This document shows positions 1-32,711 of a stretch of 35,207 nt of DNA, in pieces; position 1 is the first letter of the stretch; every line of letters starts with the position of its first letter. Position numbers and translations under genes: made by a program. Under the pieces are notes generated by a model that made no database searches, had not been told where the DNA came from, and saw only the letters and a list, made by a program, of their open reading frames with translations. Source of the stretch: a virus (Duplodnaviria > Caudoviricetes); the IMG/VR virus record IMGVR_UViG_3300025639_000010, positions 1-35,207 of that record; one strand, 5' to 3'.

Positions 1-123
1 TGTGCTCTGGTTTGAAGTGTAGCATCTGGTCTAAAAGTGGTACAAAAATGTGTGGGGGTATTAAACAATAGGTCGGAGCGATTTCCCCCCTTGCCATAAT
101 ATGGCACACTGTGGGGCGTGGTG

Positions 124-139
124 TGTTCCACGTGAAACA
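124..139. promoter_or_regulatory. parS-type centromere site (ParB binding)
   Basis: TGTTCCACGTGAAACA matches the conserved bacterial parS consensus TGTTNCACGTGAAACA at all positions. Confidence 0.75.
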
Positions 140-169
140 ATAGCACAGCGTGTATGTGTACTGCAAAGT

Positions 170-185
170 TGGCACGATTCTTGCA
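170..185 (+). promoter_or_regulatory. sigma54 -24/-12 element
   Basis: TGGCAC-GATTC-TTGCA matches TGGCAC-N5-TTGCW. Confidence 0.7.
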
Positions 186-215
186 TGACCTACACGTTAT
201 TTGTAGCTCATTTGT

Positions 216-231
216 TGGCACGTTTCTTGCA
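216..231 (+). promoter_or_regulatory. sigma54 -24/-12 element
   Basis: TGGCAC-GTTTC-TTGCA. Confidence 0.7.
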
Positions 232-241
232 TAGTGACGAG

Positions 242-258
242 CGCACTACTTTGGTGCA
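242..258. promoter_or_regulatory. NtrC-type enhancer-binding-protein site
   Basis: CGCACTACTTTGGTGCA versus consensus TGCACCA-N3-TGGTGCA; lies between the convergent sigma54 sites. Confidence 0.55.
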
Positions 259-288
259 TGGCATAAATTTTTCACCTATGACGAACCA

Positions 289-304
289 AGCAATAACCAT
301 GCCA
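289..304 (-). promoter_or_regulatory. sigma54 -24/-12 element
   Basis: minus strand reads TGGCAT-GGTTA-TTGCT. Confidence 0.6.
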
Positions 305-324
305 ACTTAACCTATACTTAGCCT

Positions 325-340
325 AGCAAGAACCATGCCA
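325..340 (-). promoter_or_regulatory. sigma54 -24/-12 element
   Basis: minus strand reads TGGCAT-GGTTC-TTGCT. Confidence 0.6.
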
Positions 341-471
341 AATGCAAAATCCATGCTCTACGCTCAAACAGTGAATTCTGAATATAAAGCCGCTCACAAG
401 GCGTAAACCTAAAACCTGTACCACTGCACTACCTACACCCTAAACGGGGCGTAAGCAGAGTTACTAACAGG

Positions 472-570
472 TTATCCACAGGCTGTAAGTCACTGATTTA
501 TAAGGCTTTTATTTTACGCCTAAACACGCTATCCACAGGTTATCCACAGGTTATCCACAGGTTATCCACA
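472..570 (+). promoter_or_regulatory. DnaA box cluster (4 perfect + 1 near-perfect)
   Basis: TTATCCACA at 472-480, 540-548, 551-559 and 562-570; CTATCCACA at 529-537; the last four have an 11-bp period. Confidence 0.8.
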
Positions 571-584
571 CCGCTCTCAAAACT

Positions 585-600
585 TGGCACACTTCTTGCT
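585..600 (+). promoter_or_regulatory. sigma54 -24/-12 element
   Basis: TGGCAC-ACTTC-TTGCT. Confidence 0.7.
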
Positions 601-648
601 ACGTGTGTGTGCGCTTCTTTTAAGCAAAGCCAACAACTCCATGCCCTA

Positions 649-667
649 AATGATAATGATTCTCAGT
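649..667. promoter_or_regulatory. Fur box
   Basis: AATGATAATGATTCTCAGT versus gammaproteobacterial Fur consensus AATGANAATNATTNTCATT (1 mismatch). Confidence 0.65.
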
Positions 668-712
668 AGCGTTACCGATCTTCTGTTGATACTTTACTTT
701 AAAAACATGCCC

Positions 713-765
713 TAAGTCATTGATATTTGCCAATGCAAATTAATTTCACTCGTAAGTTATTGATT
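713..765 (-). promoter_or_regulatory. two IHF consensus sites
   Basis: minus strand TATCAATGACTTA (713-725) and AATCAATAACTTA (753-765) match WATCAA-N4-TTR; near-match at 486-498. Confidence 0.55.
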
Positions 766-784
766 TATAAGGGTTTTCTAGTTA

Positions 785-804
785 GTTTGGCTTGCAAGTG
801 AAAT
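785..804. repeat. 20-bp palindromic repeat copy 1 (degenerate right half)
   Basis: GTTTGGCTTGCAAGTGAAAT, immediately upstream of the -35 of the first promoter. Confidence 0.6.
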
Positions 805-810
805 AAAGTG

Positions 811-839
811 TTGACGGCCTGAAAGTATGGTGATAATCT
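811..839 (+). promoter_or_regulatory. early host sigma70 promoter
   Basis: TTGACG (811-816), 17-bp spacer, extended -10 TGn-TAATCT (831-839), upstream of the first gene. Confidence 0.7.
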
Positions 840-881
840 GGTGTCGACTTCAACAACAACCAACCAAAAAAGAGGCATATT

Positions 882-1559
882 ATGAACACATTAACAACAA
901 CACAAACAGTAGTAAATGAAGACGCAAAGTTAGACCATAACCTAGCAAGTGACATACTCAGTAAACATGTGTTAGACCATGTTAAGGCAGAAACAAGCAC
1001 TACTGTAGCTGATGCAGGGATTAATGAGTACTTAAAAAATACCTTGATCGGTGTACCACTGACTGATGCAGTCAAAAATATCCAACAGGATTTCAACATA
1101 ATACTGTTTTGTAATTGGGAGCAACAAGCAAAGATTAGAAAGCTCTTGAATAATAGACTTTCCAACTTTACTAAGAAAGGAACAAAAGACAGTAAAGCAT
1201 ACAAAATGCAATCCGATTCAAGAGCTTTGGGTATGGAGTTGGAGCTTGGACGGGGCAAAAGTAAAGAGAAATTGCTTAAGCAAGCATACTATGCCAATAA
1301 AGCACGTAATGCAGGTGTATATACACCTGAGGACGTTAGTACAGGTTACAGCCCTTTTGTTATCACTATTAAAGAACCTACACCAGAAAAAGAACCTACA
1401 CCAGAAAAAGAAACTCAAGAAACAGAACAGTTTAACGGCATGTCGCACTTAATTGCCGCTTACAAAGTAGTGTTAGACAAACACAATAACGGTTCAGGCA
1501 CCCTGATCGGCTCAGAATATGATCGGATTGTTGCTAGTCTCCAAGTACTACAAGGCTAA
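882..1559 (+). CDS. first early protein, hypothetical (225 aa)
   Basis: RBS GAGG, directly after the sigma70 promoter; basic central region; KEPTPE x2 linker from an 18-bp tandem repeat at 1371-1406. Confidence 0.85.
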   Translation: MNTLTTTQTVVNEDAKLDHNLASDILSKHVLDHVKAETSTTVADAGINEYLKNTLIGVPLTDAVKNIQQDFNIILFCNWEQQAKIRKLLNNRLSNFTKKGTKDSKAYKMQSDSRALGMELELGRGKSKEKLLKQAYYANKARNAGVYTPEDVSTGYSPFVITIKEPTPEKEPTPEKETQETEQFNGMSHLIAAYKVVLDKHNNGSGTLIGSEYDRIVASLQVLQG

Positions 1560-1560
1560 A

Positions 1561-1580
1561 GTTTAGATTGCAAGCCAAAC
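1561..1580. repeat. 20-bp palindromic repeat copy 2
   Basis: GTTTAGATTGCAAGCCAAAC. Confidence 0.95.
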
Positions 1581-1586
1581 CTAACA

Positions 1587-1602
1587 AGAGCATGGACGCT
1601 CT
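1587..1602 (+). promoter_or_regulatory. CsrA/RsmA-type hairpin
   Basis: AGAGC-ATGGAC-GCTCT: ANGGAN hexaloop on a 5-bp stem. Confidence 0.6.
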
Positions 1603-1630
1603 ACACTTAACCTAAACCGAGGGCAATAAA

Positions 1631-1822
1631 ATGAACACACTAACACTTGATAAAACATACTTAAATCATAATCTACATGTAGCGTTAGCTTTGGAACTAA
1701 AATTAAATCCGCTATCATTTGAAGCCTTTTTAAAGCAAGGTGCTACATTGAAACCACTATTTCAGGTAATGGGCGCACTAGAATCACTTGACTTTTTGCA
1801 GTCTTATTTCGACAATCTGTAG
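1631..1822 (+). CDS. hypothetical early protein
   Basis: RBS GAGG, ORF bounded by repeat modules. Confidence 0.75.
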   Translation: MNTLTLDKTYLNHNLHVALALELKLNPLSFEAFLKQGATLKPLFQVMGALESLDFLQSYFDNL

Positions 1823-1823
1823 A

Positions 1824-1843
1824 CTTTGGATTGCAAGCCAAAC
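1824..1843. repeat. 20-bp palindromic repeat copy 3
   Basis: CTTTGGATTGCAAGCCAAAC. Confidence 0.95.
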
Positions 1844-1849
1844 CTAACA

Positions 1850-1865
1850 AGAGCAAGGACGCTCT
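1850..1865 (+). promoter_or_regulatory. CsrA/RsmA-type hairpin
   Basis: AGAGC-AAGGAC-GCTCT. Confidence 0.6.
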
Positions 1866-1899
1866 TTAACCTAAACCTAACAAGAGCGAGAATAACATC

Positions 1900-2133
1900 A
1901 TGTATAACTACCTAGTAGAAATAGCACGAGAACGTACGGAAATAAAAGTATTCACAACTAAAAAGCAAGCACTTGATTGTTTTGCTTACTATGAAGGTTT
2001 CTACGATATAAAAGTATTCCAAGGTGCGTATTCTCAATCAAATACTTTTGGACGGGAATACCTAGTTAAACGGGGATATATATTTGACAATGAGCCAGTA
2101 TACGAGTATGGTTGTTTTCAAGGCGAACACTAA
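1900..2133 (+). CDS. hypothetical early protein
   Basis: ORF between repeat modules, RBS GAG. Confidence 0.75.
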   Translation: MYNYLVEIARERTEIKVFTTKKQALDCFAYYEGFYDIKVFQGAYSQSNTFGREYLVKRGYIFDNEPVYEYGCFQGEH

Positions 2134-2134
2134 A

Positions 2135-2154
2135 GTTTAGATTGCAAGCCAAAC
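2135..2154. repeat. 20-bp palindromic repeat copy 4
   Basis: GTTTAGATTGCAAGCCAAAC. Confidence 0.95.
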
Positions 2155-2160
2155 CTAACA

Positions 2161-2176
2161 AGAGCAAGGACGTTCT
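2161..2176 (+). promoter_or_regulatory. CsrA/RsmA-type hairpin
   Basis: AGAGC-AAGGAC-GTTCT (G-U wobble preserves the stem). Confidence 0.6.
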
Positions 2177-2210
2177 ACACTTTAACCACACACACAAGAG
2201 GGTACACGTT

Positions 2211-2315
2211 ATGAAACCATCACTAGTAATTATTTTAGTTTTATCAGGGATAGTAGGTATGCTATCAAGTCTCTATTACTTATGGTGCACTGTCGCAGTG
2301 TTAGCCAGTTTATAA
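2211..2315 (+). CDS. small hydrophobic membrane peptide (34 aa)
   Basis: GAGG RBS before ATG 2211; MKPSLVIILVLSGIVGMLSSLYYLW... Confidence 0.6.
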   Translation: MKPSLVIILVLSGIVGMLSSLYYLWCTVAVLASL

Positions 2316-2335
2316 GTTTAGATTGCAAGCCAAAC
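2316..2335. repeat. 20-bp palindromic repeat copy 5
   Basis: GTTTAGATTGCAAGCCAAAC. Confidence 0.95.
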
Positions 2336-2355
2336 TCAACCAAGAGGGTACGATA

Positions 2356-3147
2356 ATGAATAAGTTAACCAAAGCAGTAAAACAAACACTAACACCACGC
2401 AAGGCAAATGGAGCAGTAGTTTACAAAGGCATCAGTCAACTAGACGGAATCACAGAAATAGTAGTAATAGTTACAGGGTTAGAAAACCCTACCAACAATG
2501 TTAAAACAGGTGACATGCTCCAAGCATGGGTGCTCATAGAAAACACACCACCTCACGAAGCGGTTAAATCAGGGTTAGACTATGCTATATGCGGTGACTG
2601 TATACATCGTGGCACGACTTGCTACGTGACAGTACACCAAGCACCACTGGCAATATGGAAAGCGTACAAGAGAGGTAACTATACCGATCTAACAAGTTTG
2701 GATTGCAAGCCAAACCGTGAGCAACTATGTGCCACATACGCAACCGCAGAACAAGGTAGAAACTTAAGGATTGGAGCGTATGGCGACCCAAGCGCAGTAC
2801 CTGTAGAAGTATGGCAAGAACTAGCGACTACCGCAGACACCACTACAGGGTACACACACCAGTGGAAAAACCCTAAGCATGCACAACTTAAGTACTTGAC
2901 GATGGCAAGCGCAGATTCTGTAGCTGACTTCAATCAAGCGCAAGCGTTAGGGTGGCGTACGTTTAGAGTTAAGAACGCAAACGATCACCTTTTAGAGTCC
3001 GAAGTAGTATGCCCTAGCACTACCGTAGGGCTATCATGCGCTGATTGTGGGGCGTGTAAAGGGCTAAAAGGAACACGACCACTGCGATCAAACATAGTGA
3101 TTGACGTACACGGTAGAGGTGTTAAAGCATTTGGATTGCAAGCCTAA
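2356..3147 (+). CDS. Cys-rich phage protein, Gp88-like / radical-SAM-like Fe-S protein
   Basis: GAGG RBS before ATG 2356; N-x-KTG, CGDC...CY, RIGAYGDP, GYTH, MASADS, C-terminal CP..CADCGAC and HG motifs. Confidence 0.6.
   Translation: MNKLTKAVKQTLTPRKANGAVVYKGISQLDGITEIVVIVTGLENPTNNVKTGDMLQAWVLIENTPPHEAVKSGLDYAICGDCIHRGTTCYVTVHQAPLAIWKAYKRGNYTDLTSLDCKPNREQLCATYATAEQGRNLRIGAYGDPSAVPVEVWQELATTADTTTGYTHQWKNPKHAQLKYLTMASADSVADFNQAQALGWRTFRVKNANDHLLESEVVCPSTTVGLSCADCGACKGLKGTRPLRSNIVIDVHGRGVKAFGLQA
2696..2715. repeat. 20-bp palindromic repeat copy 6 (intragenic)
   Basis: GTTTGGATTGCAAGCCAAAC, read as SLDCKPN. Confidence 0.95.
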
Positions 3148-3148
3148 C
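3129..3148. repeat. 20-bp palindromic repeat copy 7
   Basis: ATTTGGATTGCAAGCCTAAC, overlaps a stop codon. Confidence 0.9.
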
Positions 3149-3184
3149 TTATTACCCTACACCTAACAACATTGGAGACTAACC

Positions 3185-3658
3185 ATGAAACACTTACAAC
3201 CAGAGTACGTACTAGTAGGATTACGGGTTTACGTATACTTTAATCTACACCGTAAATGCTTTAGTGTTAAAGCACTAGAGGGTGAACACAAAGGGCGTGT
3301 AGTCCACCATACAGACAGTCTGTACCTACTTGATGTAACCTTTAAGGTTAGTCAAAAGGGGCGTGAGCGTGTCCTTAGAACTAAACGCAAGAACGTACAT
3401 GCAGGAGTTGTGGGTACTTTTGTTACAACCTTTCAGGTAGCCGATCCTGTAGACTCTGGCCAGCCTGTAACGTACAACCCGTACTTGTACACCAGTTTTG
3501 TAAGAGCAGACACGCTAACACCAGTATACACAGCAGGTGCTGTTTACTTAAGAGGACGTACTATTACGAGGTGGAATTCTTGGTACGAGCCTGTGGTACT
3601 AGAATACACTACGAAAGGAAGTTTAGCTTGCAATCCAAACTCAACAACAGGAGACTAA
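3185..3658 (+). CDS. conserved hypothetical phage protein
   Basis: GGAG RBS; VYFNLHRKCFSV, GRERVLRTKRKNVHA and VTYNPY motifs of a recurrent phage family. Confidence 0.8.
   Translation: MKHLQPEYVLVGLRVYVYFNLHRKCFSVKALEGEHKGRVVHHTDSLYLLDVTFKVSQKGRERVLRTKRKNVHAGVVGTFVTTFQVADPVDSGQPVTYNPYLYTSFVRADTLTPVYTAGAVYLRGRTITRWNSWYEPVVLEYTTKGSLACNPNSTTGD
3621..3640. repeat. 20-bp palindromic repeat copy 8
   Basis: GTTTAGCTTGCAATCCAAAC, read as SLACNPN. Confidence 0.95.
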
Positions 3659-3659
3659 A

Positions 3660-3875
3660 ATGAGCTACAGATCAGAACAGTGGTACGTGTGTGATTCATG
3701 CGGTGATGAAAAGCCCGAAGAACAGTTTAGCCTAGTATGCGTAGAGTGTTGCGTAGAATGCGAAGATGAACAGATGATAGCGGATGAAGAGGAAGCAGAA
3801 TATGAAGCCGAACAAGCCAAGCTACAAGCCAACATTGCGGAAACAAACCTTACACTACAAGCGCACAACTTGTAA
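3660..3875 (+). CDS. small acidic zinc-ribbon-like protein
   Basis: CDSC...CVECCVEC motifs, acidic tail, GGAG RBS. Confidence 0.7.
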   Translation: MSYRSEQWYVCDSCGDEKPEEQFSLVCVECCVECEDEQMIADEEEAEYEAEQAKLQANIAETNLTLQAHNL

Positions 3876-3943
3876 GGCACAGCGTGAACGCAGAGAGCAG
3901 AAGCAAGCACATGAAGCGTTCAAAGATAACTTGATATACTAGG

Positions 3944-4016
3944 TAACCCCTTGATTTATAAGGGATAAAATTAAATACAAATAAGTGTTGACACCCTTTA
4001 AACAACACTTTATACT
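3944..4016 (+). promoter_or_regulatory. second early sigma70 promoter with upstream IHF site
   Basis: TTGACA (3988-3993), 17 bp, TATACT (4011-4016); IHF consensus at 3944-3956 on the minus strand. Confidence 0.8.
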
Positions 4017-4051
4017 TGACTTAACTTTTACACACCAACAGGAGAAACACC

Positions 4052-4261
4052 ATGATGTTACTACGTTATGACACCAAAGCACAGTTAAAAGCAAGCATAG
4101 GCAAGCCCCTAAACTATACAGAAACAAGTATGTTTGGAGCAGAGTACAAACCTAACGGTAAGTTTGCAGGAGCACGTAGACCACACCTTTTAGGCGGTAA
4201 AGGGCGTGAGTGGTTTGCTGAAATCACTATGGTTAACGGCTTGATTCACAAAGTAAGCTAA
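4052..4261 (+). CDS. conserved hypothetical phage protein
   Basis: AGGAG RBS; Y-x-ETS-x-FG-x-EY and REWFAEITM motifs. Confidence 0.8.
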   Translation: MMLLRYDTKAQLKASIGKPLNYTETSMFGAEYKPNGKFAGARRPHLLGGKGREWFAEITMVNGLIHKVS

Positions 4262-4281
4262 CTTTAGCTTGCAATCCAAAC
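4262..4281. repeat. 20-bp palindromic repeat copy 9
   Basis: CTTTAGCTTGCAATCCAAAC. Confidence 0.95.
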
Positions 4282-4283
4282 AC

Positions 4284-4299
4284 AGAGCAAGGACGCTCT
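4284..4299 (+). promoter_or_regulatory. CsrA/RsmA-type hairpin
   Basis: AGAGC-AAGGAC-GCTCT. Confidence 0.6.
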
Positions 4300-4327
4300 A
4301 CACCTAAACTAACAACAGGAGAACACC

Positions 4328-5035
4328 ATGTACACAACCAGAAGTATGCCCCTACGTAAAGTAGGTAAGTTGATGAGTTTTATCAACCAATTGAACGATA
4401 AGCATGAAGCTAGTGAAGCCCTGAGCTACGAAATGGGATCATGCCACCTACGTAAAGGTAACGCCTTCTTGTACATTCAGAATGAACAAGGCAACGTGTT
4501 ACCAGAAATGGAGTCAGCTATCATACAACATATAGCCACTGGTCTTATATTCACAGACCGTACATCATTACTTGATGACCTCGCTCAGCAAGAGTACTTA
4601 CGCCACTTGTTACTGACTAGCGGTCAGGTAGAAGTCACGTTCCGCAAGAAGAACGGTGACATGAGAACCATGAATATACACATGAACAGTATGTGGATGC
4701 GTAAAAACTCAGAGTTATTGAAGATAGTACCTGAAGGAGAGTATCCTGCCACGTATGTTATGCGTACCTTACTACGTATCAAGGAAGATGACACAGAAAA
4801 CACTGCATGGACAGTGTGGGACGTAGAATGTAAGGGTTGGAGAAGATTCAGACTAGACAGCGTAGTACGCATGAAGTCGCAGAGTCGCTTACTCTTACGT
4901 GTAGTAGATGACGCTGAGTTTGAAGCAGACACCAGTGCAGACAAGGATGCGCTGTATCAAGACTGTTACGATGTTATGAAAGAGATCAAGACACTGGAAG
5001 ACCTTTACCGAAACACACCATCTTACGGAGCATAG
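4328..5035 (+). CDS. WYL_2/DUF2693 SH3-like domain protein
   Basis: VEVTFRKKNGDMRTM ... VWDVECKGWRRFRLDSV signature. Confidence 0.7.
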   Translation: MYTTRSMPLRKVGKLMSFINQLNDKHEASEALSYEMGSCHLRKGNAFLYIQNEQGNVLPEMESAIIQHIATGLIFTDRTSLLDDLAQQEYLRHLLLTSGQVEVTFRKKNGDMRTMNIHMNSMWMRKNSELLKIVPEGEYPATYVMRTLLRIKEDDTENTAWTVWDVECKGWRRFRLDSVVRMKSQSRLLLRVVDDAEFEADTSADKDALYQDCYDVMKEIKTLEDLYRNTPSYGA

Positions 5036-5037
5036 CA

Positions 5038-5448
5038 ATGACTTACTTAACACCAAGCGTGGAAGAACAAATGGAAGCACAGTTAACTGAGCAACAGTTA
5101 ACAACACTAGAACAGGAAGCAGAGGTATTCAAAACTCTACTGACTGAGTTAACGAGTCGCACTATAATAATTGCGTTAGTACACCAACGTAAACACGCCA
5201 GTGCGATACATGGAATCAGAATGTTCGCAGACAGTATAGACGGCATAGCCGCTTGTACTATTGCATGTGATGCTGACGTAAGCCAAGCACACATGAGCTT
5301 GATCTTGGACTACAGGAACTGGCTGTGTGACAGACTGAGAACAGGGGAATTAAACATTCATGGCAAACATATGTGTGCTATGTACGACCCTGAAATAACA
5401 GACAGCATAGTTTGGGATTGCAAGCCAAACTCAACCAAGGAGCAATAA
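5038..5448 (+). CDS. hypothetical protein
   Basis: GGAG RBS, contiguous in the early operon. Confidence 0.75.
   Translation: MTYLTPSVEEQMEAQLTEQQLTTLEQEAEVFKTLLTELTSRTIIIALVHQRKHASAIHGIRMFADSIDGIAACTIACDADVSQAHMSLILDYRNWLCDRLRTGELNIHGKHMCAMYDPEITDSIVWDCKPNSTKEQ
5411..5430. repeat. 20-bp palindromic repeat copy 10
   Basis: TTTGGGATTGCAAGCCAAAC, read as VWDCKPN. Confidence 0.9.
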
Positions 5449-5449
5449 C

Positions 5450-5863
5450 ATGGGAGCACGGTACACAGACCTACGGTTTGAACCGCTTAACAAGGAAGAA
5501 CGTAACCTTATGAACTGGGGTGGATTTAGTAAGTGGATGACAGGTAGAGCAGATACTGCAAAGCGTGTCAGTGGTTCAGTGAGTAAGTGGACAGACGGCA
5601 AGGTCACATGTAGTCGTATTCCTGCTACTAAGAACGTACCACACGGGGGTTTAATACTGCACCTTAAGTACGAGGGCTACACGGGAGCAGACATTAAGTG
5701 TATGTTTCCCTTTCCCCGTGAAGAGATCGACCGCATACTAGACCGTGCGGTTGGTTGGACAGAGGAAGACGGGAACAAGGTAAGCTACGACCTAAACACC
5801 AACAGAGAGTACCGCCAGTTGATGGGTGCTTATCCTTTACAACACGAACAGGAGTACAAGTAA
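5450..5863 (+). CDS. hypothetical protein
   Basis: AAGGAG RBS, contiguous. Confidence 0.75.
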   Translation: MGARYTDLRFEPLNKEERNLMNWGGFSKWMTGRADTAKRVSGSVSKWTDGKVTCSRIPATKNVPHGGLILHLKYEGYTGADIKCMFPFPREEIDRILDRAVGWTEEDGNKVSYDLNTNREYRQLMGAYPLQHEQEYK

Positions 5864-6234
5864 TGGCTAAACTAATATTAAGTCTACAACCACGAACTAA
5901 CAGCAAGTCGTACAGGTATCTACATCGGTCAGCTATGTTAGCGTTTGACCCTGCTGACCATCACAACCTATCCTTTAAGATGCATGGTAGGGACAGCCCA
6001 GTACCAAGGTTGTCGTTTACAATCAATCAGCCAGAGGTAAACGTAGACTCAACAGGCACGGGTAGGGTGTACGACATACACCTTAAGAACAAGCTGATTA
6101 GGTTCAGGGACATGATGCGTTTATGGGGCATCTGTAGCGCAAGCACAGACTACTCGTATCTTGTTATCCGTGAGTCCACAGACAGCGTACTAGACTACAT
6201 GAGGTATGAGAATACACAACGGGGAGGTGAGTGA
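5863..6234 (+). CDS. hypothetical protein
   Basis: TAATG overlap and AGGAG RBS support ATG 5863 rather than 5755. Confidence 0.7.
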   Translation: MAKLILSLQPRTNSKSYRYLHRSAMLAFDPADHHNLSFKMHGRDSPVPRLSFTINQPEVNVDSTGTGRVYDIHLKNKLIRFRDMMRLWGICSASTDYSYLVIRESTDSVLDYMRYENTQRGGE

Positions 6235-6419
6235 TGACAACGTACTCAAAACAGAGCTTGTTTTTAGAGCAAGCACCTTGTTTCAACTTTGAACTAGACG
6301 CAGACGGGTTGGTAGCTAAAGGGTTAGAAGTAGGTTTCATTACTAAAGTAGGGGATGATCTGTATGAACGTAATGACAACTACGGTTATGCCTTACAAAA
6401 CAAATTTAGAGGAGAATGA
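6231..6419 (+). CDS. small hypothetical phage protein
   Basis: GGAGG RBS, overlapping stop/start. Confidence 0.7.
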   Translation: MMTTYSKQSLFLEQAPCFNFELDADGLVAKGLEVGFITKVGDDLYERNDNYGYALQNKFRGE

Positions 6420-6637
6420 AAATGGGTAGAGTAAAGAGTTGGTTTATGAACTTTGATGTAGCAGACGAGCAAGAGTACGATCAAGGTGAGTACGTGCAAG
6501 CACATGATATGCAGTCCAATATGTTACCTGTATATCCTAAGCACGATGTGCAGGTAGGTGAAATGGTAGCAGGTGAAGAGCCTACCGCACAGGATTGGGC
6601 TGAGTACACCCACTACATGCAGTCCAACGGGCTGTAA
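6416..6637 (+). CDS. small acidic hypothetical protein
   Basis: ATGA overlap, GAGGAG RBS. Confidence 0.7.
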   Translation: MKMGRVKSWFMNFDVADEQEYDQGEYVQAHDMQSNMLPVYPKHDVQVGEMVAGEEPTAQDWAEYTHYMQSNGL

Positions 6638-6642
6638 GTAAA

Positions 6643-6662
6643 CTTTAGATTGCAATCTAAAC
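6643..6662. repeat. 20-bp palindromic repeat copy 11
   Basis: CTTTAGATTGCAATCTAAAC (perfect 18-bp palindrome), just before the RNAP RBS. Confidence 0.95.
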
Positions 6663-6674
6663 TAAGGACACAAC

Positions 6675-9293
6675 ATGAGTCTTATAGATATTCAACGTAA
6701 GTACGAAGAAGCACAACTAGCGCACAGTCGTACCCGTGTACTGAATACATTTACTAAGATGGTGGCTAAAGGGGGTGGTGACAGCACCCCTGAAGGACAG
6801 GCACTTAAACGATTAGGCTTAGACAGAGTGCAAAGCACACTAGAAGAGTACTTCAGAGCACCATTACGAGGTCACAACGCTAAACAACGTGACGTAGTAA
6901 TGGTATACAAAGGCAAAGAGGACGTACTGGCATTTATGTTAGTGTCTACTGTACTACAGGTACTCTTAAAGCACCCACAGACCATGCAAAACCTAGCTAC
7001 TACGCTAAGTAAAGCACTTAACACGGACATGTTACTGGAAGCATTCCACAGCGAACACCCTAAGTTACTAAACTACATAGACTACGAGTACCGTAACCGA
7101 GGACAAGAGTACATACTTAGCCGCAAGCGTAGGTTAGCTAAGATGACTACTACCCTTGAGTACGGTAGTGTAGACCTTGCGGTTTGTTTGCGGTTGTTAG
7201 AACTACTACTTAAGTCAAATACAGGCATGTTTGAAGTCAAACGTAAAGCCCATCCTACTAGTCGTACCCTGACAGGTAAGGTAATAAAGCTGTATTTGAC
7301 TGAAGAATCACGCTTAATCATAACTAAAGTACAGGACGTACTAACTAAAATAGGAGTACTGTACAAACCCCTAGTTGTAACGCCTAAACCTTGGGATTTA
7401 AGCACTCAACGTGGCTCATCGCACGGTGGATACCACTTTACAGGTACTATTCCATTCGTAAGGCACAAAAGTAGGATAGCAAACCGTATATGGAAGCGTT
7501 TGCAGACTAAACATGCTAGATCTTCGCTACTAGGTAGGGATTTTAACGTAAATAAGGACAAACCACTGTATTTAAAGCGTTTAACTGACGTTATCAACGG
7601 AGTTCAGAACACTGAGTGGAGAACTAATCGTTTTATATTGAATGTAGCACAACATATTGTAGACAACAACATAGTAGACCCGTTGTCACCACCTGATAAC
7701 CCTAGATGTATAGGTGGTATTCCTCACATGGAGTTTTTAAACGTAGACACCATCGTTTTGATGCACAACTACGGTGAACTGTACACCACACAGAGCGGTA
7801 AGCAACGATTTGTACGCAAAGAGGACTACAAACGCTATTATACTGCCCGTGAGACAGCACTTACACGCTTGGAGTCTAACAACAGTAAACGTGTAGTCTA
7901 CAAACTAGCATTGGCACTAGCTGACGAGTTCAGCGTGTATGACAAGTTTCACTTTAGCTACAGTCCTGACTTCAGGTCACGTTTGTACCCTGTACAACAG
8001 TTGCTTAACCCACAGTCCAGTTCTAACGTAAAGGCACTACTAGAGTTCAAGAACGGTGTAGTACCTACGGACGAGGGCATATACTGGATTAAAATAGCAG
8101 TAGCTAACACAGCAGGTCAAGACAAGGAGTCATACGAAGACCGTATAGAGTGGGTAGAGTCCCACATGCAAGACATACAACAGTGCGCTGACAGCCCGTT
8201 AGAGAGCACTTCTATATGGGGTAAGGCAGATGAACCACTTATGTTTTTAAGTGGCTGTAAGGCTCTTAGAGACGGTCTGAGGGGCATTCCTGTACACTTT
8301 CCTATACCTTTAGACGGTAAGTGTAGTGGTATCCAGATATATAGTGGCTTACTACGTGACAAAGAGGGAGCGGAAGCAGTTAGTGTAGTGGAACGTTCAG
8401 CTTGCAATCCAAACTCTAACAGAAAACCTGCTGACATATACAATGCGGTTGTAGCCCGTGTAAATCTACTAATGAAGATGGGATTCCCACCTAAAACCAT
8501 CACGTTTACAGACAGCACAGCTACACGTAGGGAAATACCTACATCAGTAGAGCTTAAGAGCATGGAAGGCAACATAACACGTAGTCTGGTTAAGCGTAAC
8601 GTGATGACACAACCTTACTCAGTGACTGCACACGGTATGTATGCACAACTCAGGGAACTGTTTGAAGACATAGAAGCTAACACACCTGACCAAGTGTTCT
8701 GGCGAGGAGAAAAGTGGGTATGTATACGCTTACTGGTTATACTGAACACCAAGGCTATAAGCGACATAGTTAAAGGAGCAACTAAAGGACAGGAGTACAT
8801 TAAAAAAGTAGCATCTATGATGAACAAAGAAGGCAAAGTACTACAGTGGACTACACCGTTCTTTGACTTTCCTGTCATACAAGCACAAACAGTACGTAAA
8901 GAGCGCAGGATAACTACTTCAATAGGTAAACTTAAGTTCTTAGAGCACACAGACACGTTAGACAAGCTACGTCAGAGTAATGCTATTGCTCCTAACCTTA
9001 TCCACAGTCTGGATGCTACCCTGTTGTACTTAACAGTAGAGCGACTACTAGCATTAGGAGTTAAGGACTTCAGTTTGATACACGACTCATTCGGAGTAGA
9101 CTGTAACAGCGTAGGTAAGCTCAACATAGCACTACGTGAGAGCTTTGTAGAACTGTTTGAGTCTGACCCACTACTTAATTGGTATCAACAACTACAAGCG
9201 GAGTGTGATGTTGTATTGCCACACCCTGACACAGTAATGATTAATACATTAGACTTAAAGGAGGTAATGAACTCAAGGTACATATTTAGTTAG
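6675..9293 (+). CDS. T7-like single-subunit DNA-directed RNA polymerase (gp1)
   Basis: DFRSRLYP, motif A LDGKCSGIQ, motif B RSLVKRNVMTQPYS, PNLIHSLDA, motif C IHDSFG, C-terminal YIFS. Confidence 0.98.
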   Translation: MSLIDIQRKYEEAQLAHSRTRVLNTFTKMVAKGGGDSTPEGQALKRLGLDRVQSTLEEYFRAPLRGHNAKQRDVVMVYKGKEDVLAFMLVSTVLQVLLKHPQTMQNLATTLSKALNTDMLLEAFHSEHPKLLNYIDYEYRNRGQEYILSRKRRLAKMTTTLEYGSVDLAVCLRLLELLLKSNTGMFEVKRKAHPTSRTLTGKVIKLYLTEESRLIITKVQDVLTKIGVLYKPLVVTPKPWDLSTQRGSSHGGYHFTGTIPFVRHKSRIANRIWKRLQTKHARSSLLGRDFNVNKDKPLYLKRLTDVINGVQNTEWRTNRFILNVAQHIVDNNIVDPLSPPDNPRCIGGIPHMEFLNVDTIVLMHNYGELYTTQSGKQRFVRKEDYKRYYTARETALTRLESNNSKRVVYKLALALADEFSVYDKFHFSYSPDFRSRLYPVQQLLNPQSSSNVKALLEFKNGVVPTDEGIYWIKIAVANTAGQDKESYEDRIEWVESHMQDIQQCADSPLESTSIWGKADEPLMFLSGCKALRDGLRGIPVHFPIPLDGKCSGIQIYSGLLRDKEGAEAVSVVERSACNPNSNRKPADIYNAVVARVNLLMKMGFPPKTITFTDSTATRREIPTSVELKSMEGNITRSLVKRNVMTQPYSVTAHGMYAQLRELFEDIEANTPDQVFWRGEKWVCIRLLVILNTKAISDIVKGATKGQEYIKKVASMMNKEGKVLQWTTPFFDFPVIQAQTVRKERRITTSIGKLKFLEHTDTLDKLRQSNAIAPNLIHSLDATLLYLTVERLLALGVKDFSLIHDSFGVDCNSVGKLNIALRESFVELFESDPLLNWYQQLQAECDVVLPHPDTVMINTLDLKEVMNSRYIFS
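8395..8414. repeat. 20-bp palindromic repeat copy 12 (inside RNAP)
   Basis: GTTCAGCTTGCAATCCAAAC, read as RSACNPN. Confidence 0.9.
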
Positions 9294-9298
9294 TCCAG

Positions 9299-9318
9299 TT
9301 ATCCACAAGTTATCCACA
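9299..9318 (+). promoter_or_regulatory. tandem DnaA boxes
   Basis: TTATCCACA at 9299-9307 and 9310-9318 (11-bp period). Confidence 0.7.
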
Positions 9319-9327
9319 GGATATGGT

Positions 9328-9343
9328 TAAAAGGACACTGTAT
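9328..9343 (+). promoter_or_regulatory. candidate phage RNAP promoter (class II)
   Basis: TAAAAGGACACTGTAT, 15/16 identical to 20278-20293; resembles the SP6-type GACACTATA core. Confidence 0.5.
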
Positions 9344-9452
9344 GTACAGACGATAGCGTACAGGGGGGAGGGTATGCGTAGTACCGTATGTAGTATCAGT
9401 ACTACTAGTACCCCCGTTCAAAAGTAGACTAAAAATTTAGGAGACAAGTGTA

Positions 9453-9737
9453 ATGAACACTGTAAAGAAAATACTACTTGCTACACTACTGGTAGGAGTG
9501 GTAGGATGTAGTGAGATAGACTTAACTAAGGTAGTAGCGCAAACACCTACTACAGCACCAGTAGTTGAGGTCATAGAAGTAGAAGTACTAAGGGAGGTAG
9601 TAGAGCTACCTGAACTTGAACCAGAAGTAGTACATGAAGTAGAAGTAGAAGTGCCTGTCTTTGATAGTGAAGACAACGTGATAGGTACTGAAACAATAGT
9701 AGTACCAGTACCAGAAGTAGAACAACAACTTATTTAA
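9453..9737 (+). CDS. predicted lipoprotein, acidic Val/Glu-rich
   Basis: signal peptide MNTVKKILLATLLVGVVG-C (lipobox). Confidence 0.75.
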   Translation: MNTVKKILLATLLVGVVGCSEIDLTKVVAQTPTTAPVVEVIEVEVLREVVELPELEPEVVHEVEVEVPVFDSEDNVIGTETIVVPVPEVEQQLI

Positions 9738-9759
9738 TTAATGCAAAGGAGCAAGATCA

Positions 9760-10380
9760 ATGGCTAAAGTAAAAGCATTTGTAACACCACTGGGTTCAGC
9801 AAAATGGGCATCTATCGTAACACCTAACACTAAATGGGATGAAGCAGGTAAGTATGAAATTACTGTAGAGTTCAAACCAGAACAAGTAGTAGAGTGTAGA
9901 GCTTACTTGGACACCGTACTTAAGGACTTCATAGCTGAAGCAAAGCCTAAACTTAACAAGGCTAAACAGAACACAGTAACTGTAGTCAGTCCGTTTAAAG
10001 ATGTACTAGACGTTGACGGTAACCCAACAGGTGAAGTAAGTTTAAAGGGTAAGGCGTACACTACGTCTAGGGAAGGTGAGCCTTTGAAGGTAGCTATCGC
10101 AGACAGTAAAGGTAGAATCATGCCTAACTTTAGTAAGCTAGTAGGTAATGGTAGCAAAGTTAAAGTAGCACTGTATCCTAAAGCCTACTACATGGGTAGT
10201 AACAATACCTTTGGACTGTCACTGACTATTAACTCAGTACAAATAGTAGAGTTGGTTGAGTACACCCGTGATGGTTTCAAGGAAGAAGAAGGAGGGTTTG
10301 TAGCTGATGATGCTGACTTTAAAGCACCACACACTGACCAAGAAGCACAAGTAGAAGCAGAGGTAAGCGGAGACTTCTAA
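9760..10380 (+). CDS. single-stranded DNA-binding protein (gp2.5-like)
   Basis: TPLGSAKW, GNGSKVKV, GLSLTINSVQIVELVEY, acidic tail ending in Phe. Confidence 0.93.
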   Translation: MAKVKAFVTPLGSAKWASIVTPNTKWDEAGKYEITVEFKPEQVVECRAYLDTVLKDFIAEAKPKLNKAKQNTVTVVSPFKDVLDVDGNPTGEVSLKGKAYTTSREGEPLKVAIADSKGRIMPNFSKLVGNGSKVKVALYPKAYYMGSNNTFGLSLTINSVQIVELVEYTRDGFKEEEGGFVADDADFKAPHTDQEAQVEAEVSGDF

Positions 10381-12011
10381 TGAACAGGGATGAGGGAGAA
10401 TTTATAAGACATGACCCTTGTCCTGAGTGTAGGAGCGGAGATGCACTAGCAGTATACGATTCAGGTACTGCTTACTGTTTCTCTTGCTCCACCTACATTC
10501 ATAAGTATGAGGAACAAGAACAGATTGCAATCCAAACAGGAGGGGCTAATATGACCCGTGATTCATTCGTAAGAGGTGAATACCTAGATTTAAATGCACG
10601 TAAAGTAAGTAAAGCAACCTGTCGCAAGTATGGCTACCATGTAGCTGATGTGCAGGGAGTTAAGACCCAGATAGCTGACTACTATGACAGTAAGGGTGAG
10701 CTAGTAGGACAAAAGGTAAGGTACGCAGACAAGACGTTTAAAGTAAGAGGTGAAGTAAACACTAAGCACTTGTTTGGTAGACACCTGTGGCGTGACAAAG
10801 GGAAACAAGTAATAATATGTGAAGGCGAGATAGATTGTCTGAGTGTAGCTGAAGCGTTTGGTGCTAAGTATCCTATAGTCAGCCTGCCCAATGGAGCACA
10901 AAGCGCAGAGCGTGTAGTCAAGAACAACCTAGAGTGGTTGGAAGGTTTTGGTTCAGTACTACTGTGGTTCGACAACGACACAGCAGGTAAGGAAGCTGTT
11001 GAAAAAGTAGTCCCACTGTTAACAACAGGTAAGGTTAAGGTAATTACTACAGGCTACAAGGATGCTAACGATGTGCTTATCAATGAGGGTAAGTCAGCAG
11101 TCGTAAGTGCTACGTATGAGGCCAGTGAGTGGCGGCCTGACGGTATACTTAGAGGTGCTGACCTGTTCAAAGAGTACAAAGAGAAACAGGTGTTTGCCAA
11201 GTGTGACTACCCGTATCCTAAGCTGAACGACATGTTCAAAGGACTACGCAAGGGTGAGTTGGTTACGTTTACAGCAGGCTCAGGTATGGGCAAGTCAACT
11301 GTGGTTAGAGAAATAGCTTACGACTTGATGCTTAAGCAAGGACAACGTATAGGTTACGTAGCGTTAGAAGAGAACTGGCGAAGAACACTGACTAGTTTCT
11401 TAGGCATGTATGTTAACAAGCCTTTGTACTACGATGATGAGCTTACACCAGAGGAAGAAAAGGAAGCATGGGACGAGACTATAGGCAAGGAGCGACTGTA
11501 CTTGTACGATCACTTTGGGTCTATTGAAACAGAGAACCTGCTTAACAAGATACGTGTCATGGTTAAAACATGTGGAGTAGACTACATTGTGTTAGACCAC
11601 GTAAGTATAGTGGTCAGTGGTATGGATACATTTGATGAGCGTAAGGCGATTGACAAACTGATGACTGACTTGCGTAGCTTAGTAGAAGAAACACAGGTAG
11701 GTATGCTTATCATTAGCCACTTACGTAGGACAGGTGAGAACAAGAACCATGAGGACGGAGCACAGATTAGCTTAGGTCAGCTACGTGGGTCAGGTGCTAT
11801 TGCTCAACTGTCTGATGCAGTGATCGGGTTGGAGCGTGACGCACAGCACGAAGAAGACGGAGATACAATCAGGATACGTGTACTTAAGAATAGGTTTGCA
11901 GGTACGTTAGGGCAAGCTGACACTTTAAGGTACGACCATGTAACAGGACGGATAGACACTGTACTCACGGTAGAGGAAGAGGAGATAGACTTTGACAACC
12001 CTGACTTTTGA
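10380..12011 (+). CDS. primase/helicase (gp4-like)
   Basis: Zn finger CPEC..CFSC, TOPRIM EGEID / FDND, Walker A AGSGMGKS, DHVSI, LRGSG, KNRF. Confidence 0.97.
   Translation: MNRDEGEFIRHDPCPECRSGDALAVYDSGTAYCFSCSTYIHKYEEQEQIAIQTGGANMTRDSFVRGEYLDLNARKVSKATCRKYGYHVADVQGVKTQIADYYDSKGELVGQKVRYADKTFKVRGEVNTKHLFGRHLWRDKGKQVIICEGEIDCLSVAEAFGAKYPIVSLPNGAQSAERVVKNNLEWLEGFGSVLLWFDNDTAGKEAVEKVVPLLTTGKVKVITTGYKDANDVLINEGKSAVVSATYEASEWRPDGILRGADLFKEYKEKQVFAKCDYPYPKLNDMFKGLRKGELVTFTAGSGMGKSTVVREIAYDLMLKQGQRIGYVALEENWRRTLTSFLGMYVNKPLYYDDELTPEEEKEAWDETIGKERLYLYDHFGSIETENLLNKIRVMVKTCGVDYIVLDHVSIVVSGMDTFDERKAIDKLMTDLRSLVEETQVGMLIISHLRRTGENKNHEDGAQISLGQLRGSGAIAQLSDAVIGLERDAQHEEDGDTIRIRVLKNRFAGTLGQADTLRYDHVTGRIDTVLTVEEEEIDFDNPDF
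10518..10537. repeat. 20-bp palindromic repeat copy 13 (primase linker)
   Basis: GAACAGATTGCAATCCAAAC. Confidence 0.85.
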
Positions 12012-13833
12012 CCTTGAAACAGACGGACTGTACCGTGAGTGTACACGCATTCACTGTGCTGTTATTTATGACCACGATGAAGACAGATACCATACGTTTG
12101 ATCCTACAGATGTACACAGATTACCTGAGATTCTCAAGGAAGCTGATGTACTGATAGGACACAACATAGTAGGGTTTGATGTACCTGTCATTAACAAGTT
12201 GTTTGGTATTGATCTACACCATCACTGTGCACTACGGGATACGTTCTTGCTTAGTAAGTTAGCGTACTACGACATGGAAGATCACTTAGCTATGTCAGCA
12301 CCATGTGACACTAAGTTAAAGAGTAGTCACGGACTTAAGGCATGGGGTCAGCGTCTTAAGCTACACAAAGGAGACTATGGTGAGCAAGTGGATGCGTGGA
12401 CGGATTACGATAAAGGTATGTTGGACTACTGTAAGCAAGACGTTAAGGTAACCACTACCTTGTATCGTCACCTGATGCGTAGAGGTAACGTACCTCAACG
12501 TGCGCTGAGACTTGAGCAAGACTTTGCAAGAGTAATACAAAAGCAGACAGCTAAAGGGTGGTACTTTGATGTCAAGAAAGCACAGCAGTTACATGTACAG
12601 TTACACCAACAACGGGAGGAGATAGAGCGAGAGCTTAGTACAGTATTCAAACCCCTGTACTGTGGGACTAAGACAGATCATGTAACTGAACCTGCTAAAC
12701 TTAAGACTTACAAGAGTGGTACATACACACGAAAGTGTGAGGTCACAGGTGTACGAGTAGAGTACGGTACGCACACTCCTATTAAACTAACAGAGTTTAA
12801 CGCAGGTAGTAGACAGCACATACACAGGTGGCTACATGTTATGTACAAGTGGAAACCTAAGAAGTATACAGAGAACGGGAGTGCTATTATTGACAGTACT
12901 GTTCTTAACGCACTTCCTTATCCTGAAGCACAACTACTAGGCAAGTACTTTGAGTTGCAGAAGATATTAGGTATGTTAATAGAAGGAAAGAATGGATGGT
13001 TAAAGGTAGTAAACGATGAAGGCAGGATTAATGGGGAGCTTGATACTATTGGGGCTGTTAGCGGTCGCTGTACTCATAGGTCGCCCAACCTTGCACAAGT
13101 ACCCAGTAGCAGAGCGTTCAAAGGTAAGGAGTGTAGAGAGTTGTTCACCGTACCTAAAGGAAAAGTCCTTATAGGATGCGATGCCAGTGGGTTAGAGCTT
13201 AGGATGTTAGCACACTACATGGCGGCATACGATCACGGGGAGTACGCTAAACAAGTAGTGCATGGAGACATACATACAGTCAACCAAAAGGCGGCAGGAC
13301 TAGCTACTAGAGATCAGGCTAAGACTTTTATATATGCTTTCCTGTACGGAGCAGGTGCTAGTAAGTTAGGTGCTATCTGTGGTAAGGGTGCGGCACATGG
13401 TAATAGGCTTAAGGAAAGATTCTTTGACTCACTACCTGCTGTGAAGCAGTTAATGTCAGGAGTGCAACACGCTATAGCACCTAAGTATGACAACGGACAG
13501 ATGCAAGCGATGAACTTACGAGGTATATCAGGTAGGTTACTGTACATTCGGTCACCTCATAGTGCTCTTAATACCCTGTTACAAAGCGCAGGTGCTTATG
13601 TAATGAAGTACTATACGGTACAATTAGATATACACTTACGTAAGTATGGAGACAAGGTAGCATTTGTAGGCAACATACACGATGAGGTACAGCTAGAAGT
13701 AGACGAGGATATAGCAGAAGAAGTAAGGGTAATATGCGAGGATACATTTGATACAATAACTAAGATGCTTAAGTGGCGATTACCTTTAGAAGGTGAAGCT
13801 AGGATAGGCAGGACATGGAATGACACACACTAA
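11992..13833 (+). CDS. DNA polymerase family A (gp5-like)
   Basis: 3'-5' exonuclease FDLET / HNIVGFD / YCKQDV; DASGLELR; RDQAKTFIYAFLYG (Tyr type as in T7); HDEVQ; TTG start with GGAG RBS. Confidence 0.97.
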   Translation: MTTLTFDLETDGLYRECTRIHCAVIYDHDEDRYHTFDPTDVHRLPEILKEADVLIGHNIVGFDVPVINKLFGIDLHHHCALRDTFLLSKLAYYDMEDHLAMSAPCDTKLKSSHGLKAWGQRLKLHKGDYGEQVDAWTDYDKGMLDYCKQDVKVTTTLYRHLMRRGNVPQRALRLEQDFARVIQKQTAKGWYFDVKKAQQLHVQLHQQREEIERELSTVFKPLYCGTKTDHVTEPAKLKTYKSGTYTRKCEVTGVRVEYGTHTPIKLTEFNAGSRQHIHRWLHVMYKWKPKKYTENGSAIIDSTVLNALPYPEAQLLGKYFELQKILGMLIEGKNGWLKVVNDEGRINGELDTIGAVSGRCTHRSPNLAQVPSSRAFKGKECRELFTVPKGKVLIGCDASGLELRMLAHYMAAYDHGEYAKQVVHGDIHTVNQKAAGLATRDQAKTFIYAFLYGAGASKLGAICGKGAAHGNRLKERFFDSLPAVKQLMSGVQHAIAPKYDNGQMQAMNLRGISGRLLYIRSPHSALNTLLQSAGAYVMKYYTVQLDIHLRKYGDKVAFVGNIHDEVQLEVDEDIAEEVRVICEDTFDTITKMLKWRLPLEGEARIGRTWNDTH

Positions 13834-13843
13834 GGAGACGAGT

Positions 13844-32450: not shown

Positions 32451-32462
32451 GAGCAATAAGGC

Positions 32463-32711
32463 TTGAATGCACACGAAGAAAACGAACCGTGTTATCTAGA
32501 AACTCGACTAACCAAGCTAGAATGGCAACAAGCAGAACACGCTGAAGAAATACGAGAAGTAAAGAGAACAGCAAACGAGTTGTCTGTGGCACTCAAGGAC
32601 ATCTCAGCGTGTCTACAACAAATCAAGTACACAGCTTTTGGTGCTGTGGCAATGTTGTTGCTTTCTACGCTTGGGGTCTTGGATACTATGTCGCTAATTC
32701 TAAGTAAGTAA
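32463..32711 (+). CDS. coiled-coil protein with C-terminal TM (XhlA-like / lysis-associated)
   Basis: RLTKLE heptads, then hydrophobic AFGAVAMLLLSTLGV; AGGAG RBS, TTG start. Confidence 0.65.
   Translation: MNAHEENEPCYLETRLTKLEWQQAEHAEEIREVKRTANELSVALKDISACLQQIKYTAFGAVAMLLLSTLGVLDTMSLILSK

Follow-up and report, generated by a model that had tools for sequence, protein, structure and literature searches.

The DNA analysed here, called the window in the following, is the whole 35,207-nt stretch of the IMG/VR record IMGVR_UViG_3300025639_000010 (Duplodnaviria; Caudoviricetes), and all coordinates are window positions unless another contig is named. It represents a marine T7-like phage that encodes a single-subunit RNA polymerase (6675-9293), whose top match in the cultured collection is that of Lauvirus lau218 (37.5%), and a portal that is 77% identical to the Lau218 portal. 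As stated in the original prediction, which was made from the sequence alone, the phage encodes a polymerase and a primase-helicase of its own; the large and small subunits of a ribonucleotide reductase were recognised by eye and by synteny with Lau218. The subject of this work is the left end of the genome, which has no credible gene within bases 1-881, but harbors 16 close matches to the sites of six bacterial DNA-binding proteins in the first ~700 bases of the phage. The first early open reading frame (ORF; 882-1559, plus strand, 225 aa) belongs to no PHROG family, and PHROG scans named no inhibitor or regulator among the 13 early proteins. Ahead of this ORF a candidate σ70 early promoter was read by eye at 811-839 (+), with 5/6 at -35, a 17-bp spacer, 3/6 at -10 and an upstream TG; a σ70 promoter scan of the left end gave no site at its threshold. 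Contig L001, which is identical to window 1-14039, continues leftward with 439 non-coding bases and then the terminase large-subunit gene terL. The same join is present in contig L200, a Logan contig spans terL to window 364, and L001 shares its layout with the relative L002 (polymerase 93%, terminase 96%). L001, L200 and the best sequencing runs possibly derive from the same sample as the window, whereas L002 is a different phage. Because of these joins and the layout of L002, the left region is phage DNA at the genome-end junction, between terL and the first early gene, and the terL-joined contigs rule out that the left end is host DNA or a chimera, a possibility considered in the original prediction.

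Weight matrices applied to window 1-880 detected five DnaA boxes, five σ54 sites of the -24/-12 type, two Fur sites, two IHF sites and one NtrC-type box, to which one parS-type site is added. The latter, a predicted ParB site, is located at 124-139, 64 bases from the inferred genome end, and is identical in 16/16 positions to a 16-mer of the phi29-family phage phi-15. It would agree with the universal parS consensus; no copy with two or fewer mismatches was found at Campylobacterota parB loci (0/30). It is followed by σ54 sites at 170-185 (+) and 216-231 (+) and by the NtrC-type box at 242-258, all within the terminal repeat described below, and then by two σ54 sites directed at the genome end (289-304 and 325-340, both minus strand), the first of them in a 36-bp duplication. 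A natural variant without one 36-bp σ54 unit occurs in run X5 (joint 3620-3657). Further inward lie a DnaA box with the oriC R1/R4 sequence at 472-480 (+), an adjoining IHF-like near-match at 485-506, and four DnaA boxes with 11-bp spacing at 529-570 (+; starts 529, 540, 551 and 562), three of which are perfect and one of which has 1 mismatch. The pair of DnaA box and IHF-like near-match is also present in L002. A σ54 site directed at the early genes (585-600, +), conserved in L002 and L021 along with the bases 3' of it, is followed by a Fur box (649-667), an IHF-type site (712-733), a second, weaker Fur-like site (732-750) and an IHF-type site ahead of the early promoter (752-773). An alternating purine-pyrimidine tract stands 3' of the forward σ54 site in the window (601-615), in L002 (2794-2810) and at the end of Vibrio phage 1.293.O (L220), and one of these three phages belongs to another family.

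Most of these sites had already been named in the original prediction. The matrices recovered its five DnaA boxes, its NtrC-type box, its Fur box and its five σ54 elements, the last at the same places and on the same strands; of its IHF sites those at 712 and 752 were confirmed, whereas the near-match at 485 remained below threshold. Its two weaker Fis-like sites are not supported, although no search aimed at Fis was made: the first coincides with a conserved element at 259-273 that marks the inner boundary of the repeat, and the second (735-749) shares bases with the weaker Fur-like site at 732-750. Six site types were modelled, and sites of other host factors, such as LexA, CRP or MetJ, may be missed. 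The matrices were built from the E. coli oriC, glnA-ntrBC, fep/ent and hyc/hyp/nor/psp loci and from lambda attP, and the thresholds were set by the analyst below the training scores. Scoring against shuffled controls, as had been suggested, was done with 1000 dinucleotide shuffles of window 1-880. The observed count was reached in 0 shuffles for DnaA (5) and σ54 (5), in 1 for Fur (2), in 12 for IHF (2) and in 30 for NtrC (1); no shuffle had more than 4/6 site types, and all six came together in 0/1000. The parS figure (1/1000) is circular, because the parS model was trained on the window itself, and the test is not fully independent, because the host training sites were chosen as the best matches to the window sites. 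Nevertheless, the promoters and the origin hit by these best matches in host DNA are the expected ones. Within 38.5 kb of E. coli DNA, a model made from the five window σ54 sites gives the highest ranks to hypA, hycA, norV, pspA and glnAp2, which we take to be σ54 promoters, and the three best matches of the NtrC-type box in 6.5 kb around glnA-ntrBC are the upstream sites of glnA and glnL. Furthermore, the Fur sites match best in the fepB-entC and fepD-entS promoters, 4/5 DnaA boxes are identical to oriC R1/R4, and the best lambda attP match of the near-match at 485 is the same site as that matched by 752. The window sites score at or above the native host sites. The array of sites is real.

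The rest of the window (34.3 kb) contains 0 NtrC, 0 Fur, 0 parS, 1 σ54, 8 DnaA and 9 IHF matches, and no σ54, NtrC, Fur or parS site is present in 1,616 bases of internal gaps and the 439 trailing non-coding bases. Two perfect DnaA boxes are located at 9299-9346, after the RNA polymerase gene and directly 5' of a phage-promoter-like 15-mer. This DnaA pair with the 15-mer is kept in L002 and L003, DnaA boxes with the promoter-like 15-mer are found 3' of terL in L001 and L002 as well, and 9299-9346 is a candidate for a DnaA-assisted origin.

The physical end of the genome can be placed by homology to T7. Window 44-60 (+) aligns with the 17 bases preceding the right-hand repeat of T7 and of Ship_A7, a phage with a 177-bp repeat determined by end sequencing (PMC8427288). 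This terminus signature lies 5' of the inferred cut and would represent right-end unique DNA in a circularised assembly. A C-run element at 82-91 (+), ~23 bases inside the repeat, is the counterpart in the alignment of T7 nt 23-31, and the copy of this region in L042 matches T7 nt 15-38 in 22/24 positions (BLAST). In run X2 contigs break exactly at L001 3387 and 3589, which correspond to window 61 and 263. Because of the T7 terminus homology and the X2 breaks at both predicted borders, we infer a physical end at 61 and a direct terminal repeat of ~203 bp at 61-263 (+), similar in length to the 206-bp terminal repeat of P-SSP7 (PMC3350473). The claim that this is the leading genome end therefore holds for the left end of a T7-like phage, but not for window 1-60, which precedes the inferred physical end. 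With the repeat at 61-263 the parS-type site, the σ54 sites at 170 and 216 and the NtrC box would be present at both ends, whereas the remaining 12 sites lie in the 618-base left leader. The conserved inner-boundary element (259-273, +) is the top leave-one-out match at +167 to +291 from the terminus in 16/16 loci of the Lau218-like clade and at +203 in the window, with a model that was trained on +120 to +330 and a match that is weak in Lau218. T7, T3 and Ship_A7 likewise have an element of this kind after the repeat, and the element at 259-273 is likely the counterpart of the T7 concatemer-junction signal, for which a role in pausing is described (PMC3276506). An exact-match search with the terminus signature yielded 9 contigs already in the set and 2 without a T7-like left end. 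The signature gives a means of placing genome ends in uncultured T7-like contigs.

For comparison with relatives, 204 terminase loci were reduced to 200 with the terL C-terminus, 128 with at least 1300 bases downstream and 92 after dereplication. A two-part terminus model, whose training set included the window, placed 48/92 loci above the highest null score, and the 44/92 loci without a passing terminus signature were excluded from terminus-anchored counts. Within 2.5 kb downstream and upstream of the terminase, respectively, the 92 loci contain 46 and 0 Fur, 10 and 0 NtrC, 5 and 0 parS, 43 and 9 σ54, 110 and 50 DnaA, and 72 and 50 IHF matches. Since the upstream side is mostly coding, shuffles were added to this comparison. 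In 12 clade loci (terminase at least 73%, own phage left out) the interval +0 to +300 has 18 DnaA matches with 1.9 expected, 12 Fur with 0.4, 3 parS with 0, 2 σ54 with 0.3 and 1 NtrC with 0.1, and +300 to +700 has 11 IHF matches, distributed over 9/12 loci, with 1.4 expected. No excess over the shuffle range was found in these loci before the terminus or beyond +700. Conservation in relatives hence applies to the place, as such sites are confined to the ~700 bases that follow the terminus, but not to the kind of site, which is swapped. In L018, L026 and L210 a parS-type site is present again, 45-56 bases inward of the terminus. Unlike other clade members, L026 also has three DnaA boxes 563-594 bases after terL, just before the inferred terminus and therefore on the trailing side. 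Among distant T7-like loci, L070, L103 and L075 have 6, 3 and 3 σ54 sites, respectively, packed directly after a terminus-like element; they are of mixed orientation in L070 (70-320 bases after terL), all forward in L103 and all reverse in L075, and most have no gene to drive.

The contents of the inferred repeats were compared in 16 Lau218-like clade loci, three of which were added by best match and two of which (L012, L016) are absent from the tree. Sites of known type occur in 11 repeats, 2 contain only unidentified repeated dyads and 3 contain none. The window repeat has parS, σ54 and NtrC sites, that of L021 σ54 and NtrC, those of L026 and L210 parS with 4-5 DnaA boxes, those of L032, L033 and L042 3-4 DnaA boxes, those of L034 and L209 2-4 Fur sites, and that of L012 Fur together with a triple dyad. 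The terminase of L012 is 96% identical to that of the window phage, yet the sites in its repeat are different. Seven loci form a 99/99-supported group with tip branches of 0.07 or less, and their arrays nevertheless differ, being DnaA, Fur or unidentified. The array types recur in relatives with unalignable spacers, the arrays often adjoin the inner boundary of the repeat, and in the leader the forward σ54 site is kept in the window phage, L002 and L021. The inferred repeat is a segment with fixed borders, the interior of which is swapped between predicted sites for unrelated host proteins. The slot of known sites is filled by dyads in L002 (2498-2557) and in the inferred repeats of L213, L033, L032, L034 and L041; one form is an 18-bp dyad in triplicate with 21-bp spacing, another is present 3-4 times with 25-bp spacing. 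These dyads probably represent binding sites for additional host regulators.

The array bears on the question of how linear phage DNA survives and stays engaged during the minutes before phage proteins appear; terminal repeats are commonly seen as nothing but signals for packaging and recombination. With somewhat less than even confidence, we propose that host proteins would form an accessory and interchangeable coat on the left end, by which the incoming DNA end is held in place and protected. The sites exist and match host sites, and their place relative to the end would be that given by the T7 homology and the contig breaks. If the phage enters like T7, the left stretch would come in first and pause before any phage protein is made. 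ParB, σ54 holoenzyme, NtrC, DnaA, Fur and IHF are predicted to load on this stretch, and it would be the bulk of bound protein, rather than the signals that these factors sense, that hinders back-slipping of the DNA or the loading of end-seeking nucleases or sensors. The naked end would be shielded while the first ~800 bases await host RNA polymerase in the cytoplasm; T7 keeps its entering genome clamped at ~850 bp until the host polymerase pulls (PMC8954989), and in the window phage the first gene lies ~820 bases from the end. Fixed borders, a swappable interior, consensus-grade sites in either orientation and the emptiness of the other non-coding DNA favor occupancy over a single signal or a sponge. 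Docking of host proteins at the DNA end, as put forward in the original prediction, fits because sites of this kind reappear in relatives nowhere but within ~700 bases downstream of the terminus; its more specific idea of an oriC/parS mimic is argued against because site types are swapped between close relatives, and a pure decoy is weakened because the internal gaps (1.6 kb) and the trailing 439 bases are free of σ54, NtrC, Fur and parS sites. The IHF site near the promoter and the DnaA boxes adjoining phage promoters probably do not belong to the coat but are conventional elements in their own right, and the proposed roles can coexist. A further step, which we consider somewhat unlikely, would be to regard the terminal repeat as a fast-evolving, DNA-encoded counter-defence cassette that hides both ends from end-sensing immunity. 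Borrowed ParB clamps, locked σ54 polymerase, DnaA filaments and Fur arrays would then disguise the ends at a time when no phage protein is made yet, and the cassettes would be swapped as hosts change. If the coat idea is true, T7-type entry would be linked to the unexplained DnaA boxes at the injection pause of T5.

Several observations weigh against such a coat. Sites cover 65/203 bases of the repeat and leave its first 63 bases free, and RecBCD pushes bound proteins off DNA. Position alone cannot separate coating from regulation, because the leader also holds promoters. T7 entry already has a motor, gp16, which draws in the first ~850 bp and keeps them clamped until the host polymerase takes over the pulling (PMC8954989), so that a ratchet is not needed there. 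The arrays are dispensable, as they are present in 0/7 model left ends (T7, T3, SP6, phiKMV, VP4, KP34, phiIBB-PF7A) and lacking in 3/16 clade repeats, among them that of Lau218 itself. The signal is weak in the 35 distant loci, where the first 300 bases have 5 σ54 matches against 0.8 expected, 2 DnaA against 3.0 and 2 NtrC against 0, and before the terminus these loci have 10 DnaA matches against 3.6 expected. Moreover, 4/5 IHF matches in +0 to +300 overlap DnaA arrays and are probably artefacts. Finally, the depth between the breaks in run X2 is 131-148, with flanks of 86 and 67, but run X1 has a flat depth of 18.8 with no step at the repeat; depth doubling is hence seen in 1/2 runs, of which X2 may be the source sample, and contig depth is a poor measure of copy number.

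Rather than serving as a coat, the sites could subject early transcription to the state of the host, which we regard as possible but somewhat unlikely. The NtrC box (242), the IHF-like near-match (485) and the forward σ54 site (585+) would then form a nitrogen-starvation promoter by which the genome is pulled in at low σ70 activity, and Fur, DnaA and IHF would tune or defer the lytic cycle, for which Spo0A in phi29 and, as a proposal, CtrA in Caulobacter phages are regulatory precedents (PMC2731898, PMC9437464). The order 242/485/585+ matches an NtrC-IHF-σ54 promoter, and glnAp2-type promoters have the same three site types with matches to E. coli sites; but the spacing is long, the IHF site is sub-threshold and the other four σ54 sites do not fit. 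Of the five σ54 sites, four either lack a gene to transcribe or share bases with the region of the NtrC box. Unlike in glnAp2, the five σ54 sites run in both directions, and only 585+ faces a gene, at a distance of ~330 bases from the NtrC box compared to about 150 stated in PMC8657755. From its position, 585+ is the sole σ54 site that could be a working promoter. Transcriptional control would go along well with the weak σ70 promoter of the window, with the forward σ54 site common to the leaders of the window phage, L002 and L021, and with the IHF site before the early promoter in 9/12 relatives. It is best illustrated by L067, in which two NtrC boxes, an IHF and a σ54 site lie 426-680 bases after terL and end ~40 bases before the first ORF, a textbook NtrC-IHF-σ54 layout that is a candidate nitrogen-regulated early promoter. 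In view of the conserved IHF site and the L067 layout, some of the sites may simply make up a normal promoter. For the array as a whole, the sensed signal would have to change from iron to nitrogen or to the cell cycle in phages that are almost identical, and many sites are 250-700 bases away from the promoter.

A sponge by which multiplying genomes titrate low-copy host regulators is less probable still. Its targets would be σ54 holoenzyme, NtrC, ParB and DnaA, with host replication, segregation and stress responses being blocked, or Fur, the titration of which would release iron uptake for the iron-dependent ribonucleotide reductase of the phage. Site scores that equal or exceed those of native sites, the doubling of the site dose by the repeat and the two reductase subunits encoded by the phage are in line with this, yet a sponge could sit anywhere, and the internal-gap and trailing bases are empty of σ54, NtrC, Fur and parS sites; besides, one incoming copy titrates little and the outcome would differ with each swapped factor. 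We give equally little credit to a role in genome handling after entry, in which ParB positions phage DNA or spreads on it, and DnaA and IHF help to open an end-proximal origin or to organise end-to-end recombination and concatemer cutting. The DnaA boxes with the promoter-like 15-mer at 9299-9346 and after terL (L001, L002) are at the positions of what we take to be the primary origin of T7 and of phiOR, respectively, and they probably belong to a role in replication or segregation. That arrays often adjoin the inner boundary of the repeat would suit this role too, and phi29 uses parS with Spo0J (PMC2731898). Repeats with Fur only or σ54 only are left unexplained by it, parS is present in only 5/92 loci, and for replication the phage can draw on a polymerase and a primase-helicase that it encodes itself. 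It is highly unlikely that the sites have no function at all and are captured host fragments, short site-like duplications or an assembly artefact. The region turns over fast, the 11-bp and 36-bp local duplications could inflate counts, and at the opposite end the window is a chimera or a recombinant, as described below; but six types in one segment occurred in 0/1000 shuffles, the types recur in relatives with unalignable spacers, and the region is joined to terL in L001, L200 and the Logan contig.

Parts of this arrangement have precedents. In T5, host DnaA boxes lie in the injection-stop region of the left repeat and were proposed to hold the DNA during the entry pause (10.1101/866236). Common to both is the presence of host DnaA boxes in gene-free, first-injected and terminally repeated DNA of a lytic phage. 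However, the T5-like siphophages have a 10-kb repeat, in which the sites of one factor keep an invariant, conserved arrangement at a distance of kilobases from the end, whereas the window phage has a T7-type repeat of ~200 bp, six factors starting 64 bases off the end and sets that are swapped between relatives. Identity with the T5 injection-stop region, which needs eight paired-inverted DnaA boxes in a ~10-kb repeat, was rejected, since the five boxes here are on the same strand and outside the ~200-bp repeat. A bacterial oriC or captured host origin was rejected as well, as all five DnaA boxes are on one strand and the flanks are phage terL and early genes. In phi29, parS and Spo0A boxes, some of them near the genome ends, are connected with spore entrapment and with repression, which was shown (PMC2731898). 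As in the window phage, host-protein sites are carried by a lytic phage, in phi29 for two proteins including ParB/Spo0J, and the site at 124-139 equals the phi-15 16-mer; but phi29 has a Gram-positive host, protein-capped ends and conserved sites, in contrast to the unprotected T7-type ends and changing factors seen here. Clusters of CtrA sites in the terminal repeats of pili- and flagellotropic phages of Alphaproteobacteria were linked to "lytic deferment" (PMC9437464). High-scoring sites of a host regulator are likewise concentrated in terminal repeats and gene-free end regions there, yet a single regulator is involved, for which binding and promoter control were shown, and the phages are large and prolate, not T7-like. 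An array of this lytic-deferment type was rejected for the window phage because the regulator type changes between close relatives. T7 and T3 share the terminus signature, the boundary element after the repeat and a gene-free leader of ~820 bases, but have no arrays of the six site types. The precedents of T5, phi29 and CtrA each involve one or two factors that are conserved within the group. A literature search covering few subscription journals and no supplements found no multi-factor or swapped host-site arrays in T7-type repeats, a negative for which the supplements of PMC9437464 and the T5 preprint may be relevant. The present work adds the mapped repeat and the swap of site sets among close relatives.

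Similar sites are present in cultured phages, which were picked via BLAST matches except for CRP-143 (polymerase similarity). Ship_A7 has 8 DnaA-like boxes in its sequenced 177-bp repeat; the Ship_A7 paper contains no mention of DnaA (PMC8427288). Among the cultured T7-like phages whose repeats are filled with DnaA boxes are some that infect E. coli. phiEap-1 has 5 perfect DnaA boxes in the first 175 bases, Vibrio phage BD1 4 DnaA boxes near an end, and Vibrio phage 1.293.O a σ54 site 34 bases from the end. Furthermore, Fur, σ54 and DnaA sites are found together in the T5-like KIT04, and Roseobacter phage CRP-143 has 3 Fur-type sites after terL. Tandem DnaA-box-like arrays were also noticed in MG945484, PQ006258, PV105567 and MH910041, the places being microvirus intergenic DNA and, in Arthrobacter phages, positions no more than ~100 bases from the ends.

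The right end of the window differs in origin from the left. Window ~32460-35207 belongs to another lineage (L235, 90% DNA and 98% terminase identity), the right-end terminase is only 45% identical to the terminase joined to the left end, and no internal-virion-type genes are present ahead of the right end. The window is therefore a chimeric assembly or a recombinant, with the junction probably in or after the collagen-like repeats. Regarding the host, a terL search of genome contigs gave 0 matches. L223, a 3.6-kb contig with an RNA polymerase 54% identical to that of the window, was found in a Sulfurimonas bin, but this host link is doubtful; in that bin, which is incomplete, no ntrC, ihfA or parB was above the cut-off. 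Moreover, an 18-bp repeat of two-fold symmetry is present in 16 copies across window 786-27945, mostly directly 5' of gene starts (786, 1562, 1825, 2136, 2317, 2697, 3130, 3622, 4263, 5412, 6644, 8396, 14248, 19245, 22420 and 27928), and one copy abuts the candidate early promoter. It has 6 weaker copies in L002 and 0 in L021. Natural variants have joints across copies of the repeat with loss of early genes, and the repeat is possibly an operator of the phage or an element for shuffling cassettes.

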